A stretch of 64,000 bases of DNA, taken from positions 101,009-165,008 of the forward strand of contig CAVXTM010000005.1 in NCBI GenBank assembly GCA_963764725.1, given 5' to 3'. The position numbers and the translations under genes were made by a program. Within the stretch, counting starts at the first letter, position 1. The number at the start of each line of letters is the position of its first letter. Source of the stretch: an uncultured Gammaproteobacteria bacterium. Lineage in GTDB: Bacteria > Pseudomonadota > Gammaproteobacteria > JACCXJ01. Shown in pieces: positions 2,657 to 43,706 of the stretch. The notes below the pieces were generated by a model. The model was not told where the DNA came from. It worked only from the letters and a program-made list of their open reading frames with translations, and searched no databases.

Positions 2657-3213
2657 GCGTGGCCCGCATCCGGCGCTAGCCGGTCGATATCGACACCGAT
2701 CAAGGCGGCTGCCGACTCCCAGCGCCGTTCGGGCGCTATTTCAAACAAGATCTCCTGATTGGCGGGGCCGTTCAGCCAGGCGTTTTCCGCCATCTCGCGC
2801 TCCAGTTGCCCGGCGCCCCAACCGGCATATCCGAGAGCAACCAACGCTTGCTGCGGCCCGTTGCCGTGGCAGATGGCCTCGAGGATATCCCGAGAGGTCG
2901 CGACTCCACACTCATCGCTGACCTTGATCATGGATTCCCAGTGACTCAGCGGTTGATAGATGATAAAACCGCGCTCGCGATGAACGGGTCCTCCTTGAAA
3001 CACCGGTAGATCACTGATTTTGGGGTTCGTGGGCACAAGCTCCATTTGTGTGAGCACGTCGCCCAAATTAATGTTAGTTGGGCGATTTATTATAATGCCC
3101 ATCGCGCCTTCATCGCTGTGGGCGCACACGTAGGTCACAGTTTTATGGAAGTTAGGATCCGCAAGACCGGGCATGGCGATGAGAAGTTGGTTGGTGAGAA
3201 TGAACGAGTTCAT
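2653..3213 (-). CDS. algH: YqgE/AlgH family protein
   Basis: LLIAMP, DPNF, GGPV, GYAGW and C-terminal AGHA. Confidence 0.95.
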   Translation of the reverse strand: MNSFILTNQLLIAMPGLADPNFHKTVTYVCAHSDEGAMGIIINRPTNINLGDVLTQMELVPTNPKISDLPVFQGGPVHRERGFIIYQPLSHWESMIKVSDECGVATSRDILEAICHGNGPQQALVALGYAGWGAGQLEREMAENAWLNGPANQEILFEIAPERRWESAAALIGVDIDRLAPDAGHA

Positions 3214-3350
3214 AGGTCCTAGTATCCGTGAGGGGATCGCAAAGTCAAGGGTTATCCTGAAAGCCGTTGGTATCGTCGATAAACGCGATGTAAGATGGTT
3301 ATATCGTTTACGCTATGAGCGGGCGGCCGGTGTGGCCGGCCGATGGATTC

Positions 3351-3542
3351 ATGGAACCCTGGATTCCTATTCTCTGGTTTCTCTATCACCTTGCGGTCAT
3401 CGCTTATTTTCAACTGCGCTTGCACGGCGAGGAGCGAGACCGGAAACGAAAACGGCAAGCGCGACGGGACCGGTTGCTGGCGCTCGGCTTCGGGACTCGC
3501 GAGTCCCCGAAACCGCGCGATGAGATCGTGATGCTCGCGTGA
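3351..3542 (+). CDS. Possible small membrane protein
   Basis: 63 aa; hydrophobic N-terminus followed by a basic stretch; no family recognised. Confidence 0.35.
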   Translation: MEPWIPILWFLYHLAVIAYFQLRLHGEERDRKRKRQARRDRLLALGFGTRESPKPRDEIVMLA

Positions 3543-3618
3543 CCGTGTCTCACGGCCTAGGCACTCTCGCGCCGGAACGCAATCCCGGAGCTGGGTATGC
3601 CTGATTCGAAAGACCTTT

Positions 3619-3903
3619 TTACTCTTGCGCCTTGCCGTAGGAATGATGAAGGTAGGTGACGATTCCCGGTACCTCCCCCGGGGGGATGGGCGCCCCCATC
3701 ACGTCGATCATCTTATTCACGCTCTTTTCCCAGCCCGCTGCGTCCAGGAGGCCGGCGTTCATCTCGATATAATCGAGGCTGTGACAGGTCCGGCAATGAG
3801 TCTCGATCAGATCCTTTCCCGGGGCTTCTTGGAGCTTAAGAGTATTCTCCTCGGCGAGCGCTGCCGCCGAAAATGCGCATAGGCAGATTAACCGGAGCGT
3901 CAT
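3619..3903 (-). CDS. Monoheme cytochrome c, SorB-like
   Basis: Signal peptide, CRTCH, W..SV.KM..MGA motif; downstream of a sulfite-oxidase-family gene. Confidence 0.85.
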   Translation of the reverse strand: MTLRLICLCAFSAAALAEENTLKLQEAPGKDLIETHCRTCHSLDYIEMNAGLLDAAGWEKSVNKMIDVMGAPIPPGEVPGIVTYLHHSYGKAQE

Positions 3904-3907
3904 TTTA

Positions 3908-4052
3908 GGGAAGCTCTGCAAAGGTTACTGCGCAGCCCATCTGCTTTGTCGCGTGCTCGCACGTCGCTCGCCTATCTACGTGATATGTCTCGCGACTCGC
4001 TCCGCGGCTTCGCGCATCTGGGCTTGCTCGCGACACTTTTGCAGAGCTTCCC
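3908..4052. mobile_element. 145-bp MITE-like element
   Basis: Perfect 15-bp terminal inverted repeat GGGAAGCTCTGCAAA / TTTGCAGAGCTTCCC; fills almost the whole intergenic space. Confidence 0.75.
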
Positions 4053-4055
4053 AAG

Positions 4056-5270
4056 TTACACCACGTTAAAGCGGACGCGCTGCACCAGGTTATGATGATA
4101 GCCGGCTGGATTCAAGATCAGCTGGCTTCCTTGCGTATCGCCGTTACGGTTGGTGGCCTTCGCCAGCAGCACGTGGTTGCCTTTCTCTAGCGGTGTAAAA
4201 CGGAAACTCCAAGGCCGCCAGGAATATCGGCCGTGATCGCCGTCCAGCTCCGCCGGTGTCCAGCTTCGGCCGTCGTCTTTCGATACCTCGACTTTCTGGA
4301 TCCCGTAGCCGCCGTCCCAGGCGATTCCTTTCACCTCGATCTGCTGGTGCAACAGGAATTCATCGTGGTCTTTGACGTTCGTAAGCAGCGAATTAACGAC
4401 CAATTCGGTGACGGGCGTGTTGGCCTCGCCGGTCTGGGAGCTAAACTCGCGCGTCGCAAGGAACGCTCCTTTGGGGACGCGGTAGGCCGTGCTCATCCAG
4501 AAGCCATCGTAGGGTTTTAAGCCGACTCTGATCGACACCAGATGCTTGACCCAATAAGTGGCCGTCCAACCAGGGACCACTAGGCGAGCCGGATAGCCGT
4601 TCCAATGTGGTAGAGGTTCCCCATTCATCTCGAAGGCGATGATGGTATCCTCGTCCAACGCCTTCCACAGCGGAAGGCTTTTGATAAAGTCCGGTGTCTT
4701 AGCGACGAGCGGCGCATCCGCACCATCGAAGGCGACTTCCAAGGCGCCGTTCCTGAAGCCGACGCGGCGCAGCACATCTGCGAGGCGCACGCCGCTCCAA
4801 CGCGCGTTACCCATCGCGCCGTGACCCCATTGGACGCCCGGCGTGCGCGGCTCGAATAAGCCCCGGCGGTTTCCCGCGCACTGGTTCACGGCCGCGATCT
4901 CTACCTGTTCGAAACCGCGCAGCAACGTTTCTAAACTAAACTCCGAGACGTTCTTGACTGCATCACCCTCGACACGCAACCGCCACGACTTGCCGTCGAC
5001 ACGCGGAATGTTCGCGAGGTGATAGCGGACAAAAAAAGCGTCATTCGGCGTGAAGACCTCATTGAAGTAATGGACTGGCGTCTCGAAATTCGGCGGCCGG
5101 TAGGTGCGCCGGATGAGCGGCTTTTTGCCGGGAAGAAGCTCAAGAGGTGCCGTGGCGAGCGCGTCATGTTCGCCCGCGAAAGCCCGAGCGAGCCTGGGCA
5201 TGAGCGCATCCCCCGCTAGCGCAAGACTGGCTCCGCCTAGACCTTTGAGGAAATCTCTCCGTTGCGGCAT
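4056..5270 (-). CDS. Tat-exported molybdopterin sulfite oxidase family enzyme (SorA-like)
   Basis: QRRDFLK twin-arginine signal, FFVRYH, QCAGNRR (Mo-ligand Cys), GYPARLVVPGW. Confidence 0.9.
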   Translation of the reverse strand: MPQRRDFLKGLGGASLALAGDALMPRLARAFAGEHDALATAPLELLPGKKPLIRRTYRPPNFETPVHYFNEVFTPNDAFFVRYHLANIPRVDGKSWRLRVEGDAVKNVSEFSLETLLRGFEQVEIAAVNQCAGNRRGLFEPRTPGVQWGHGAMGNARWSGVRLADVLRRVGFRNGALEVAFDGADAPLVAKTPDFIKSLPLWKALDEDTIIAFEMNGEPLPHWNGYPARLVVPGWTATYWVKHLVSIRVGLKPYDGFWMSTAYRVPKGAFLATREFSSQTGEANTPVTELVVNSLLTNVKDHDEFLLHQQIEVKGIAWDGGYGIQKVEVSKDDGRSWTPAELDGDHGRYSWRPWSFRFTPLEKGNHVLLAKATNRNGDTQGSQLILNPAGYHHNLVQRVRFNVV

Positions 5271-6908: not shown

Positions 6909-7048
6909 GGATGTGCTAATTAGGTGTTTTATTCGAATATACAGTTAGTTACGAATGCCACTCTGTGCTATATTCGAGACTTCACCAACGAGAACTATCA
7001 ATAAGTTACGTTTTCCGATATCTATTGAATAGCACAGTTGCCCAAGCG
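6862..7048. repeat. 187-bp direct repeat, copy 1 (copy 2 at 54765-54951)
   Basis: Ungapped alignment at offset 47903 with scattered substitutions. Confidence 0.9.
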
Positions 7049-7194
7049 GGACGCGGGGAATCCGTGAAAGTAGGAACAGCGGTAGACCTTCGGGATACGC
7101 CGAATTCCGCCCACCCTAGCCGGCGCCCGTCTACGAGCTTAATTGTGTCACCGACCGAGTCTGCCAACGTTTCTGAGCCTGGGGCCTCTTCGGG

Positions 7195-39989: not shown

Positions 39990-40955
39990 CTATCGCAGCC
40001 AGCCCTTGTGCTTTATGTATGTTAGCGGCAACAGCGCGGCGATCAAAGTCAGCGCGATCGACATGGTGAACCCGTGCTTCCAGCTCAGCTCCGGCATCAC
40101 GGCGAAATTCATGCCGTAGAAGGTCGCCACGAGGGTCGGCGGCAGGAACACGGCGGTGATGATGGTGAACACCTTGACGATTTGGTTCTGCTTGATGTTG
40201 AGGAGACCAATGACCGAGTTTTGCAGATAGCGCACCTTTTCGTGCTCGAACGCCGCGTGCGCCTTGACGCCATCGACGTCGGCGATCAGTTCCATGACCA
40301 GCGTCTGCAGATCGGGCTCAGTGCGGTTGTTGACCTCACCGTTCAGGTGGCGCACTAGGCGCGCGAGCGCGAGCTGACTCTCCAGGCATTTGGAGATCAG
40401 CTCTTCGCTGTCGTTGAGATCGAGCAGGATCTCGCTGAAGTCGCTGACGCCCAGCTCGCGCCCGGAGGTGTCTGAGAGATGCGCGATCGTCTCGGCGGCC
40501 AATTCCAGCGATTCGGCGATGGCCTCGATGACCTGATCGGTGCCATCGTTGACGCTGGCCAGGATCATGCGCAGCAGCGACTTGGCGTCGGTAGCCTGTT
40601 GCGGTCGGCGCGTCAGTCGCTGCATCACGCGGTTGAGCGGGGTGAACTCGGCGGTATCGTGCAGCGTGACCAGCAGACGTTCGCCCAGCACGATGGTGAT
40701 CTTGTGAAAGCTCGGCGCGCGTGCCTCGTCCATCGCAACGACCTCGGCGAAAAGATAAACGTACTTCTCATCCTCGTAGACACTGGTGTGCTGTAGCTGC
40801 GGTTCGACGTTGTAACGCTGGCGCAGTTCACTCATGTCATCGGCTTCGGGCTGTTGTCCGGCATCGATCCACAGGAAACCGCCTTCGGCGGGCAGCTCGG
40901 CGATGCCGGGCAGGGTGTCGATCTTGTCGTTGATGCGGTAGATAGAACGGATCAT
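39990..40955 (-). CDS. corA: CorA-family Mg2+/Co2+ transporter
   Basis: QN.IVK.FT, PPTLVA..YGMNF..MPEL.W, two C-terminal TMs. Confidence 0.95.
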   Translation of the reverse strand: MIRSIYRINDKIDTLPGIAELPAEGGFLWIDAGQQPEADDMSELRQRYNVEPQLQHTSVYEDEKYVYLFAEVVAMDEARAPSFHKITIVLGERLLVTLHDTAEFTPLNRVMQRLTRRPQQATDAKSLLRMILASVNDGTDQVIEAIAESLELAAETIAHLSDTSGRELGVSDFSEILLDLNDSEELISKCLESQLALARLVRHLNGEVNNRTEPDLQTLVMELIADVDGVKAHAAFEHEKVRYLQNSVIGLLNIKQNQIVKVFTIITAVFLPPTLVATFYGMNFAVMPELSWKHGFTMSIALTLIAALLPLTYIKHKGWLR

Positions 40956-41407
40956 GGAGATCTCCTTTGTTTCTTGGGCTCAATACGATTCGATTCGGAA
41001 GAGTAAGGCTCAGGGGGCTCTAGCATACGCTCGACGACGCCGTGGCTTACGGGATCGACTTCAACTTCCCACGCCTTGCCGCCTTTGATGGCCGTGGCGC
41101 GGTAGCGTAAGCCGTCCCGACGCAGGCCGCGAATCTCCTGGTACCCCTGACGCGCCAACAGTGCATGCACCTCGACCAGGCTTAGCTCGGTAGGGCCGGA
41201 CTGCGCTTTGGCGTCGCTCGGCTTACCGCGGAGGGCCTCATGCGAGGGCGAAGTCGAAGATGTGCGGGTCTCGGTTTCGGTCGGCTGGATGTGATGGATG
41301 GCCAGCAGGGCGGCGGACAGCAGCACGTATAGGATCACAACGGCGAGGATCACTTCGTTCTCCAGCCGCGACTTTTTAACGTTGGGTCGTTCGCGTTTGA
41401 TATTCAT
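40952..41407 (-). CDS. Membrane-anchored protein with a PepSY-like domain
   Basis: One TM; L...GY..I......Y.A.A...G...EVEVDP; overlaps the corA start. Confidence 0.7.
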   Translation of the reverse strand: MNIKRERPNVKKSRLENEVILAVVILYVLLSAALLAIHHIQPTETETRTSSTSPSHEALRGKPSDAKAQSGPTELSLVEVHALLARQGYQEIRGLRRDGLRYRATAIKGGKAWEVEVDPVSHGVVERMLEPPEPYSSESNRIEPKKQRRSP

Positions 41408-42161
41408 GGGGATGGTCTCCGGTGCGTGGCTTGGTCCTGGCAAAGTGAGGCAGAACAATGTTGAAACCCACTGTAAACCATGGGGTCTCGTCGAGACTGT
41501 CCTGCGTGCCGACGAGGAAGTCGAGACTCGAGTCTCGGCTCAAGCTGCGGCGCACCCCGACTTGGGCAATGAAGTCGCCCGCCGTGTCGCAGAGGGCTTC
41601 GCCAAGTAATACCCAGTCCTGCGCTAGCGCAATCTCCACGCCAAGACCGCCAATGACCGCGCCATTGGAACCGCGCGGGTCGTTCCACCCGAGGTTGGCG
41701 TGCAGCACCGCGCCTCGCTCGGAATCGAGCGCGAGGCTATACGGGAGGTTGAGATTCCAGCTTTCCAACCGGTTGGGGTCGGCGCTCCAGATCGCGCCGA
41801 GCGAAATGCCCAATCCCCATGGCGCGGTATCGAAATCGTGGAACAGGCGTTTCAAGCCGGGCACCGCGATCGGTCCTCTACTTGGGTTAAAGAAATCGCT
41901 GATGCCATCGCTGATGCCGAGGCTGAGTTCCGTGCCAGCGAGAGTGCACGCAGGGACGGCGGTGAGTTCTTGGCCGGGGGTATAGGCACGCGCCCAGGTC
42001 TCGACCTGACAGCGTCCAGATGGTGTGATCGTAGCGTCATCCACGAACAAGCTGCCGCCTGCGGGGGAGTCACCCGCGAGCAGGGACAGCAGGCCAACGA
42101 GTGGCGGTGCTACTTTGTCGATGAACGCCGGATGGTGCCGTTTGATGAATTGGAAACGCAT
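41376..42161 (-). CDS. Exported, possibly outer-membrane beta-barrel protein
   Basis: GGAGG RBS, signal-like segment, VDDA.IT..G.CQVETW, alternating beta pattern; 3' end uncertain. Confidence 0.7.
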   Translation of the reverse strand: MRFQFIKRHHPAFIDKVAPPLVGLLSLLAGDSPAGGSLFVDDATITPSGRCQVETWARAYTPGQELTAVPACTLAGTELSLGISDGISDFFNPSRGPIAVPGLKRLFHDFDTAPWGLGISLGAIWSADPNRLESWNLNLPYSLALDSERGAVLHANLGWNDPRGSNGAVIGGLGVEIALAQDWVLLGEALCDTAGDFIAQVGVRRSLSRDSSLDFLVGTQDSLDETPWFTVGFNIVLPHFARTKPRTGDHPHEYQTRTTQR

Positions 42162-42327
42162 GCGTCCTCCCACCGATGAGGGCGTAGTCGCGCTCAGCCG
42201 AACACCCGCCGCCAATGGCGGCACACAACAGATCAAATGGGAAGTGAGATGGAACGCCGAGAACCGGCTGTCTCAATGCCACTACCCGCCGTTGCGGCAA
42301 GGTAGCAGCGGAATATGACGCCCGCGG

Positions 42328-42378
42328 TTACCTTGCCAGTGTTGTCTCGATGCAAGATCGACTACTGGAACTGTCCAC
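42328..42378 (-). CDS. Putative leader peptide MDSSSSRSCIETTLAR (16 aa)
   Basis: GTG start, GGAG 8 nt upstream; last codons form one arm of alternative hairpins. Confidence 0.65.
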   Translation of the reverse strand: MDSSSSRSCIETTLAR

Positions 42379-42405
42379 TGAGGGAACTCCGTTTAGAAAA
42401 CCCGT

Positions 42406-42434
42406 ATTCTAGCGCAGCAAGAAAAGGCTGGCAA
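42406..42434 (-). promoter_or_regulatory. Sigma70 promoter of the corA operon
   Basis: TTGCCA-N17-TAGAAT. Confidence 0.7.
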
Positions 42435-42435
42435 C

Positions 42436-42457
42436 ATCCTCCCCAGGGGGATAGGAT
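42436..42457. promoter_or_regulatory. RcnR/CsoR-type operator
   Basis: ATCCT-CCCC-A-GGGGG-AT-AGGAT C/G-tract pseudo-palindrome, 9 bp before the repressor ATG. Confidence 0.65.
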
Positions 42458-42466
42458 ATTGCGACT

Positions 42467-42736
42467 ATGACGACACACGCGACTCACCCGGACGTAATCA
42501 AGCGACTCAAACGTGCCCTGGGGCATCTCAAGAGCATTGTTACCATGCTGGAGGAAGGGCGCGGCTGCCTGGAAATCGCTCAACAACTGCAAGCCGTCGA
42601 GAAGGCGATCGGCAACGCCAAGAAGACCTTAGTGCACGACCACATCGATCACTGCCTTGAAAACACCGTGGGAGAGAGTTCGCACGAGGCGGATCAAGCG
42701 GTTCGTGAGTTCAAGGAAATCACCAAGTACCTCTAG
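42467..42736 (+). CDS. CsoR/RcnR-family metal-sensing repressor (NreA/DmeR-like)
   Basis: H...HP....RLKRA.GHL, C.EIAQQL.AV, DHIDHCL, FKEITKYL. Confidence 0.92.
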   Translation: MTTHATHPDVIKRLKRALGHLKSIVTMLEEGRGCLEIAQQLQAVEKAIGNAKKTLVHDHIDHCLENTVGESSHEADQAVREFKEITKYL

Positions 42737-42749
42737 AGGGCAGCCAGCG

Positions 42750-43706
42750 ATGCATACTCACAATTTGTCCCCGTGGACCCACGACCACGTCTTCGACGGA
42801 GGCAACGCTGCCGCAGAACGCGGCACCCGGGCCGTCATGTGGATCACCGCCGCGATGATGATCGTGGAGATTGCCGCCGGCTGGTGGTTCAATTCCATGG
42901 CGCTGCTGGCGGATGGCTGGCACATGAGTACGCACGCCGTGGCCATCGGCCTCTCCGCCTTCGCCTATGCTGCCGCCCGCCGCTATGCCCGCGATCCTCG
43001 GTTCGCCTTTGGCACCTGGAAGATTGAGGTCCTCGGCGGTTTTGCGAGCGCCATTTTTCTGTTGGGCGTCGCGGCCGTGATGGTGGTGGGATCGGTCGAG
43101 CGGATCTTCTCGCCCCAGCCGATCCACTATCAGGAGGCGCTAGCCGTCGCCGCGGCCGGTCTGCTGGTCAACATCGTGTGCGCGATGATTCTGGGCGGCG
43201 CGCGCGATCACCATGACCATCACGGCGAACACGTACATGATGGCGACTATCAGCATCATGCCCATCATCATGACCTGAACCTCAAGTCCGCCTACCTGCA
43301 CGTCATCGCCGATGCGGTCACCTCAGTTCTGGCGATTGTCGCGCTCGCCGGCGGCTGGCTCTATGGATGGTCCTGGCTAGACCCGGCGATGGGGATCGTG
43401 GGGGCGGTGCTGGTGGCCAGGTGGGCGAAGAGCCTCATCACCGAAACCGCCAAGGTGCTGCTTGATCGGGAAATGGACCATCCGCTGGTGGAGGAAATCC
43501 GCGAAGCGCTCGAAACGGGACCGGAGGCCGGAGAGAACCGCGTCGCCGACCTGCACGTCTGGCGGGTCGGCAAGCGCTCTTATGCCTGCGCTTTGAGCGT
43601 CGTCACGCACGACAAGACGCTGACCGCGATTCGCGTTCGCGAGCAACTGGCTGTGCATGAGGAAATTACCCACGCGACGGTCGAAATCCACTTCTGCGAC
43701 AACTAA
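42750..43706 (+). CDS. dmeF: CDF-family Co/Ni efflux transporter
   Basis: SMALLADGWHM, His-rich loop, D.NL.SAYLHV.AD, DLHVW. Confidence 0.9.
   Translation: MHTHNLSPWTHDHVFDGGNAAAERGTRAVMWITAAMMIVEIAAGWWFNSMALLADGWHMSTHAVAIGLSAFAYAAARRYARDPRFAFGTWKIEVLGGFASAIFLLGVAAVMVVGSVERIFSPQPIHYQEALAVAAAGLLVNIVCAMILGGARDHHDHHGEHVHDGDYQHHAHHHDLNLKSAYLHVIADAVTSVLAIVALAGGWLYGWSWLDPAMGIVGAVLVARWAKSLITETAKVLLDREMDHPLVEEIREALETGPEAGENRVADLHVWRVGKRSYACALSVVTHDKTLTAIRVREQLAVHEEITHATVEIHFCDN

Follow-up and report, generated by a model that had tools for sequence, protein, structure and literature searches.

The 64,000-nucleotide stretch of contig CAVXTM010000005.1 from an uncultured Gammaproteobacteria bacterium (hereafter the window) carries, on its minus strand, a structured leader with a small open reading frame (ORF), upstream of a three-gene operon (Table 1; positions are those of the window unless a locus is named). 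A first-pass annotation of this DNA had described an attenuator with switchable hairpins ahead of a CorA operon; the operon does include a CorA-family gene, but as its third gene and not its first. Reading the minus strand, we found the promoter, the GGAG ribosome-binding site and the 16-codon ORF (42378-42328) of that description in place, with the correction that the ORF starts with GTG and not ATG. A promoter scan across 41900-42800 returned a single sigma-70-like site (10 of 12 matches; one found versus 0.2 expected from shuffles), from which transcription is predicted to start around 42403-42399 on the minus strand. The same scan found no intrinsic terminator at the leader, in agreement with the earlier statement that a U-tailed terminator is lacking. 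What the annotation overlooked is a divergent gene for an NcrB-like repressor, together with a putative operator that abuts the -35 box.

Table 1. Positions of the leader elements and neighbouring genes in the window
Feature	Position	Strand	Basis or remark
Sigma-70-type promoter, TTGCCA-N17-TAGAAT	42406-42434	-	Predicted
Promoter boxes: -35 TTGCCA, 17-nt spacer, -10 TAGAAT	42434-42429 (-35); 42411-42406 (-10)	-	Minus-strand reading
Shine-Dalgarno (SD) sequence GGAG of the small ORF, 8 nt before GTG	42387-42390	-	
Small ORF, 16 codons plus TAA, GTG start, (M)DSSSSRSCIETTLAR	42328-42378	-	
P-sORF, hairpin within the small ORF	42346-42362	-	42362-42357 with 42351-42346
Stem 1:2 (P1)	42296-42337	-	Outer 9 bp, 42337-42329/42304-42296; inner 4-5 bp, 42325-42322/42311-42308
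Alternative stem 2:3	42278-42309	-	42309-42295 with 42291-42278
Hairpin P4	42256-42268	-	Conserved apex, complementary lineage-specific extensions
Region 4, pyrimidine-rich G-poor tract	42223-42255	-	Core 42247-42239 can pair with region 3 (42287-42279)
Hairpin P5, GC-rich	42208-42222	-	
Conserved tail after P5	42196-42207	-	End of the homologous module
Second initiation region, SD and ATG of the first long gene	42159-42174	-	
Gene 1, 261 aa	41376-42161	-	Protein atlas: UCP029691, feature score 0.98
Gene 2, membrane-anchored PepSY-domain protein (PepSY_2)	40952-41407	-	PF13670, 24.9 bits versus cut-off 24.3
Gene 3, CorA-family divalent-cation channel, GMN motif	39990-40955	-	PF01544, 148 bits
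Imperfect palindrome, C-tract plus G-tract, abutting the -35 box	42436-42457	.	Predicted operator
CsoR/RcnR-family repressor gene, NcrB-like, divergent	42467-42736	+	PF02583, 76.6 bits versus cut-off 22.8
DmeF-type cation diffusion facilitator (CDF) transporter gene, Co/Ni efflux, downstream of the repressor	42747-43706	+	NF033827 equivalog, 362.9 bits versus cut-off 250

Direct reading and folding both bore out the perfect 9-bp complementarity, claimed earlier, between GGCAAGGTA (42337-42329) and TACCTTGCC (42304-42296); the stop codon of the small ORF sits in the 5' arm of the resulting stem 1:2. The hairpin 42337-42296, inner pairs included, folds at -22.2 kcal/mol and the alternative hairpin 42310-42278, which has wobble pairs and one bulge, at -20.3 kcal/mol. 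Because stems 1:2 and 2:3 share 42309-42296, they are mutually exclusive, as the annotation had held, and their energies are comparable in most lineages that carry the leader. The bounds of the hairpin segments were chosen after the stems had been seen, which flatters the folding z-scores. By chance, a 243-nt leader would be expected to hold about 0.065 perfect 9-bp inverted repeats and about 0.06 GGAG-led ORFs of 8-40 codons. Competing hairpin pairs in which both members reach -20 kcal/mol or lower occur as 15 clusters over 128 kb of strand sequence, equivalent to about 0.03 per leader, and 0.10 are expected at a cut-off of -18 kcal/mol. Folded as a whole, the leader is no more stable than its shuffles (z = -1.22). 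Taken alone, the features of the window are only moderately unusual, and it is the comparative evidence that decides.

That evidence comes from 15 copies of the leader (~210 nt) in about 12 lineages, one of them on a plasmid of Sulfuriferula nivalis. On this plasmid (SGTM_pl2), a plasmid search found an unannotated stretch 78% identical to window positions 42450-42218, placed between the gene of a divergent metal-sensing repressor and mgtA; the adjacent repressor proteins of the two loci are only 73.5% identical. Homology with Sulfuriferula stops at the tail that follows P5; the window type, Sulfuriferula, G815b and G1035 all retain this tail (G and L numbers denote genomes and loci of this analysis). 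Three metagenome loci (L020, L021 and L022) also carry the leader, with 93.8-94.2% identity to that of the window, versus 87.8-89.8% at third codon positions of the flanking genes, and in L020 the operon is complete, the DNA upstream is different and the repressor gene is absent. Both promoter boxes are retained in L020, L021, Sulfuriferula and G457.

The distribution of the leader is patchy. Neither leader nor operon was found in 60 close relatives (1 of 61 genomes, including the window's own). Wider surveys returned the leader in 2 of 400 genomes at class level (the window's own and G154), in G457 among 401 genomes at phylum level, in 4 of 251 genomes of the order of G457 (G457, G1022, G863 and G815), in 8 of 151 genomes and 6 of 89 genera of the family of G863 (covariance model R2), and in 1 of 14 genomes of the family of G815. 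The 3' half of the G457 copy, which covariance model R1 did not thread, was read by eye. A pattern scan of viral contigs for the leader found nothing, and a 30-nt match in G735 (E = 5e-4) was treated as chance. Two of the genomes mentioned in this work, G005 and G154, are unpublished, and no conclusion depends on either.

Covariation was counted over the 15 copies, aligned by a covariance model, for a structure (structure A) of 45 pairs and 647 cells. Of these cells, 90.9% are paired, and 21 of the 45 pairs (48 cells) are altered on both sides; none of 500 shuffles attained any of five measures, and slid partners reached at most 12 pairs and 18 cells. Four helices covary strongly. All five pairs of the inner P1 helix covary, and both-sided changes affect all six pairs of P5 (94.9% of cells paired) and three of the six pairs of P-sORF (96.6%). 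The core helices of stem 3:4 are 95.6-97.3% paired with one covarying pair, P4 is paired in 100% of cells with one of its four pairs covarying, and the distal 3:4 helix is paired in just 70.6%. The outer P1 helix is 94.8% paired, shows no both-sided change and has one pair broken in 6 copies, while stem 2:3 is paired in 94.3% of 210 cells across the 15 copies. The arms shared by two helices are simply conserved, which a switch would predict, without such conservation proving one.

The small ORF is preserved along with the RNA. All 15 copies retain its SD sequence (GGAG or GAG, spaced by 7-9 nt) and 14 a start codon (GTG in 13, ATG in one), and these 14 combine SD, start and an ORF with an MDSxSxR N-terminus. 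Eleven copies have an ORF of 16 codons, two have one of 14 and one has one of 12; the two shortened forms derive from in-frame changes. At Asp2, Ser3 and Arg7 the sole variants among the 15 copies are synonymous third-position changes. The lone 1-nt deletion in the ORF stretch falls after the earlier stop codon of G1157, and one further contig has a 3-nt in-frame insertion in the ORF, the other leader indels there being of 1-2 nt. This pattern suggests that the small ORF is translated. The peptide is Ser-rich, with Ser encoded by the rare codons AGT and TCT. The first-pass annotation had called it a non-proline peptide unlike MgtL, which holds: the window ORF has no Pro codon (elsewhere there is at most one, placed at codon 4 or 12), and the leader does not match the Rfam family of the MgtL-bearing leader (RF01056).

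The genes that follow the leader differ among lineages and recurrently encode Mg2+ transporters. MgtA is encoded downstream in 6 of 12 lineages: Sulfuriferula, G863 and G815 score 1390, 1363 and 1142 bits against the MgtA equivalog TIGR01524 (cut-off 610.75), G1035 and G1128 were identified by tblastn (76-77% identity), and G1045 encodes a 921-aa P-type ATPase with the same Pfam architecture as MgtA. MgtC is additionally encoded in G1035, and 7 of 12 lineages have an MgtA, MgtC or CorA-family gene downstream. In G1045, G1056 and G1084 the first gene encodes an OprB-family porin, and in G1084 it is the only gene before the contig ends. Moreover, an SD sequence with an ATG-CRY start (MRF...) lies 21-35 nt past the end of the module in 8 of 14 copies; such starts head unrelated proteins or, where mgtA follows directly, ORFs of 5-23 codons. 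Long-range pairing of the first-gene SD with the small ORF was considered and rejected, as the predicted partner differs in each of three variants. In L020 (~1098, equivalent to window 42161-42159) the first-gene ATG reads AGG and the frame is open far upstream, so that either another start codon must be used there or the copy must be defective.

Upstream, a divergent repressor gene is present in 6 of 12 lineages, with the putative operator abutting the -35 box in each, and is absent in the other six. In the window the palindrome (42457-42436) is likely the operator of the NcrB-like repressor, and the same layout of C-tract, one base, G-tract and -35 box recurs in Sulfuriferula, G1035, G1101 and G1056, all with a repressor gene. 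The window repressor is ~67% identical to plasmid NcrB/NirB proteins. It does not show the HCHH metal-ligand fingerprint of RcnR and DmeR, which PMC7055735 describes together with the form of the RcnR operator. By our own assignment of positions, Cys34, His59 and Cys63, plus His4 and His7 near the N-terminus, give a CsoR/InrS-like ligand pattern, despite the DmeF-equivalog partner and the NcrB/NirB identity. In L020 and two further contigs, homology upstream of the leader breaks mid-palindrome, at ~42444-42445, with at least two different replacement sequences.

Comparison across these lineages indicates that the leader is genuine, conserved and linked to Mg2+ transporter genes. On balance, and with restrained confidence, we favour the reading that the ~210-nt leader represents a conserved cis-regulatory family in which a translated small ORF is coupled to an RNA switch controlling Mg2+ acquisition operons. 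This reading starts from the observed leader conservation, four-helix covariation, ORF preservation and linkage to the downstream genes; Mg2+ as the signal, the direction of the switch, its dependence on the ribosome, the role of Rho and control by the repressor would be its further elements. The operons so regulated would typically combine an outer-membrane or secreted protein with MgtA and sometimes MgtC, and in the window with a PepSY protein and a CorA-family channel. A ribosome reaching the stop codon in the 5' arm of stem 1:2 would block that stem; region 2 would then pair with region 3 and leave region 4 single-stranded, and the exposed region 4 would bring transcription to a premature end, probably through Rho, which is proposed because no intrinsic terminator is present. 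At low Mg2+, poor or early-stalled translation of the ORF would allow stem 1:2 to form, whereupon region 3 would sequester region 4 and transcription would read through into the operon. In about half of the lineages, including that of the window, the operator of the NcrB-like, Ni/Co-responsive repressor would add control at the promoter. Support by analogy comes from the Salmonella corA leader, which works likewise (PMC5314796).

Several observations weigh against this reading. Variable sites in the ORF number 4, 6 and 6 by codon position among seven lineages, which is no third-position excess, some codons show no variation at any position and rare codons of this genome make up 9 of the 16, so that much of the constraint on the ORF appears to act on the RNA rather than on the peptide. 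The G1084 copy reads GCG at the start position, yet still precedes a porin gene. As to the conservation of ORF and stems on which the annotated attenuator depended, the ORF is kept in 14 of 15 copies and four helices covary, but neither stem 2:3 nor the outer part of stem 1:2 shows covariation among the 15 copies, that of stem 2:3 not exceeding the level of the shuffles (114 of 500 and 348 of 500). The switch would thus rest on conserved complementarity, which other constraints could also yield. The alignment of the 15 copies was fitted to structure A, so the covariation counts lean toward that structure, and the copies are related and represent few lineages, so the shuffle counts overstate both significance and independence. 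The C-rich, G-poor tract noted in the first-pass annotation (42256-42226) does contain 10 C and 4 G in 31 nt; however, it is short and its composition not unusual, about 2.4% of 31-nt windows in this DNA being equally C-rich and G-poor. Region 4, which we take as a candidate Rho loading site, spans 30-37 nt and contains 3-7 G in 14 of the 15 copies, is short and of ordinary composition within the window, and in the window is G-poor over only ~30 nt; no 80-nt window of the leader has a C>G bias. Finally, G457 (with G1022) and G1056 have, downstream of the leader, a fused-permease ABC system of unassigned substrate in place of a Mg2+ transporter, and in G1101 and G1157 the identity of the downstream genes is unclear.

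The RNA-level constraint would also be expected if the leader were a riboswitch with a metal ion, Mg2+ or some other divalent cation, as its direct ligand, and the ORF were part of the expression platform or a passenger. The M-box is a known leader RNA that senses Mg2+ directly, and the same has been proposed for the mgtA leader of enterobacteria. We judge such a riboswitch unlikely here, although it is the strongest of the rivals: it would account for nucleotide conservation that reaches third codon positions, for a covarying hairpin inside the ORF that G1128 and G1157 retain while their peptides are altered, and for the one copy that lacks a start codon, but it leaves without a reason the SD, start, frame and MDSxSxR motif kept in 14 of 15 copies, the synonymous-only variants at three residues and the restriction of ORF indels to in-frame ones, and no known riboswitch model matches. 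Next in our estimate, and rather improbable, comes a real leader that answers to another signal, such as stress from Ni/Co, a more general stress on cations or the envelope, or seryl-tRNA availability. Ni2+ and Co2+ are further substrates of CorA and MgtA, an NcrB-like Ni/Co repressor accompanies the leader in half of the lineages, two lineages have the ABC system instead of a Mg2+ transporter, and the peptide is rich in Ser with rare AGT and TCT codons. Against another signal stand the MgtA, MgtC or CorA-family genes that follow the leader in 7 of the 12 lineages, the six lineages from which the repressor is absent, and the fact that no copy has a serine-metabolism gene downstream.

That the element is not a cis-acting leader at all, being the end of a mobile element or the gene of a trans-acting small RNA, appears very unlikely. 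Its patchy spread (1/61, 2/400, 4/251, 8/151 and 1/14 genomes), the plasmid-borne copy, upstream contexts that break at one point and one G815 copy without a downstream gene of its own are what such an origin would produce. However, apart from that G815 copy the leaders lie on the same strand as the downstream ORFs, and the conserved initiation region follows at a fixed distance in 8 of 14 copies. A transposon end at ~42444, where the unit begins and its first 38 bases loosely resemble a Tn3-family terminal repeat, was rejected, as neither the window nor the genome contains a second copy or inverted partner. Hardly credible, finally, is a chance assembly of features in the ordinary 5' untranslated region of a repressor-controlled divergent promoter. 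Within the window no single feature is more than moderately unlikely and the whole leader folds no better than shuffles, but chance would not give 15 homologous copies with covariation and a preserved ORF before different genes, and judging from these comparisons it is already contradicted.

The translation-coupled leader that we favour finds its closest published analog in the Salmonella corA/corL leader (PMC5314796) and not in mgtA/MgtL. That source describes, for corA/corL, mutually exclusive stem-loops that expose or hide a Rho loading site, no intrinsic terminator, and an output of corA inversely coupled to translation of the short ORF. In both systems, by prediction from sequence in the present one, a CorA-family gene is preceded by a long leader in which a short ORF overlaps the first of two competing stems and no intrinsic terminator is present. 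In contrast to corA/corL, no sequence or model similarity was detected, the MDSxSxR N-terminus is conserved here, MgtA lies downstream more often than CorA with a porin-like gene usually first, and half of the copies have a divergent Ni/Co-type repressor. The enterobacterial mgtA leader (RF01056) likewise precedes mgtA and combines a leader peptide, alternative stems and Rho-dependent termination (described in part in PMC5314796). Here, however, the Mg_sensor covariance model of RF01056 gives no match and the window ORF lacks Pro. MgtL is a proline-rich peptide. The M-box (ykoK, RF00380) is also a cis-acting RNA preceding Mg2+ transporter genes, but its model does not match either and it needs no leader peptide.

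The layout is equally reminiscent of the trp, his and leu attenuators, in which the peptide ends next to region 1 and regions pair as 1:2, 2:3 and 3:4; unlike them, the present leader has no U-tailed 3:4 terminator, and hence not the switch-dependent intrinsic terminator of ribosome-mediated attenuators, and its peptide codons are unrelated to the function of the downstream genes. With CruR, a copper-responsive element of the betaproteobacterium Bordetella, it shares a metal-linked upstream ORF, Rho (probable here) and the company of an outer-membrane transporter and a PepSY-type protein (PMC9426467); CruR, according to the same source, is a 145-residue DUF2946 protein with CXXC and RAPP motifs, whereas the ORF here has 16 codons and lies in structured RNA. 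An Rfam search returned no match at E<=10 in the window (41500-43000) or in the Sulfuriferula leader (L035 4950-5650) nor, at gathering score, in seven further loci with the leader; no family matches it, RF01056 and RF00380 included. Neither the leader nor the peptide motif is described in the searchable literature, which excludes subscription journals and supplements, and an earlier description is possible. The leader therefore appears previously undescribed: its regulatory logic is familiar, and what is new is the RNA and peptide family.

Leader-peptide and Rho control of Mg2+ transporters has been worked out almost wholly in Salmonella and E. coli, and an unrelated leader family in other proteobacteria, with its defined peptide motif, four covarying helices and two competing stems, makes the generality of that logic directly testable. 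Through this family, operons for Mg2+ import are also connected with a Ni/Co-type repressor and with outer-membrane porins, which suggests how cells might guard their Mg2+ supply under stress from competing metals. A bolder proposal, which we regard as doubtful, is that the MDSxSxR peptide and RNA switch form a new class of cation-sensing leader in which translation of the small ORF would report cytoplasmic Mg2+ and the NcrB-like repressor would couple Ni/Co stress to the induction of selective Mg2+ import; if so, only a shortage of Mg2+ in the presence of competing metals would switch on the operon of porin and transporter. The uncharacterised ABC system is flagged by its position as a candidate member of the same response, and may belong to a common response to cation limitation. 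Its components are a double permease fused into one protein and an ATPase that carries an AAA_assoc_C domain (L042 5042-8165; L060 2926-7410).

In the operon of the window, gene 1 has no Pfam or NCBIfam match and probably encodes a secreted or outer-membrane protein of an uncharacterised family. Its homologs in Xanthomonas (~50% identity) have signal peptides and stand alone, for which reason synteny there was discarded. Distant homologs (~30% identity) in L023, L024 and L026 (~2897-4500) lie divergently beside a CorA-family gene; these loci were rejected as leader carriers, no comparable leader being present, and the pairing of the gene-1 family with a CorA-family gene therefore recurs without the MDSxSxR leader. 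The CorA-family protein of gene 3 scores under the cut-off of TIGR00383 (corA equivalog), and another, better-scoring CorA is encoded on a different contig of the same genome, which makes the gene of the window accessory. This housekeeping corA (contig C3) does not bear the leader: its upstream region of ~150 nt has no resemblance to it. In G005 (L014), the only other CorA-like paralog of the genus is frameshifted and lies beside transposase fragments in a different context.

Several copies lie in altered surroundings. In L021 and L022 (4001-4493; window 42161-41856 joined to 40155-39975) the repressor gene, DmeF gene and leader are intact, and a deletion has reduced the operon to a remnant that joins gene-1 codon 102 to the final ~57 codons of the gene for the CorA-family protein. 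The leader of G154 (L037, L038) is decayed: its -10 box is split at CTAG by foreign DNA that has inverted ends, its 5' part has moved elsewhere, GTA stands in place of the ORF start, and gene 1 is cut short. In G815, two convergent copies (L048 3258-3465 on the plus strand and 6910-7116 on the minus strand) flank mgtA, whose frame is seemingly interrupted near its 3' end; the second copy follows a gene for a phosphocholine-specific phospholipase C, runs antisense into the 3' end of mgtA and lacks a downstream gene of its own. About 0.8 kb from the leader of G1056 there is a manganese (yybP-ykoY) riboswitch (L060 8452-8620, plus strand), and a tRNA gene is directly upstream of the G863 leader (L049 2094-2183, plus strand).

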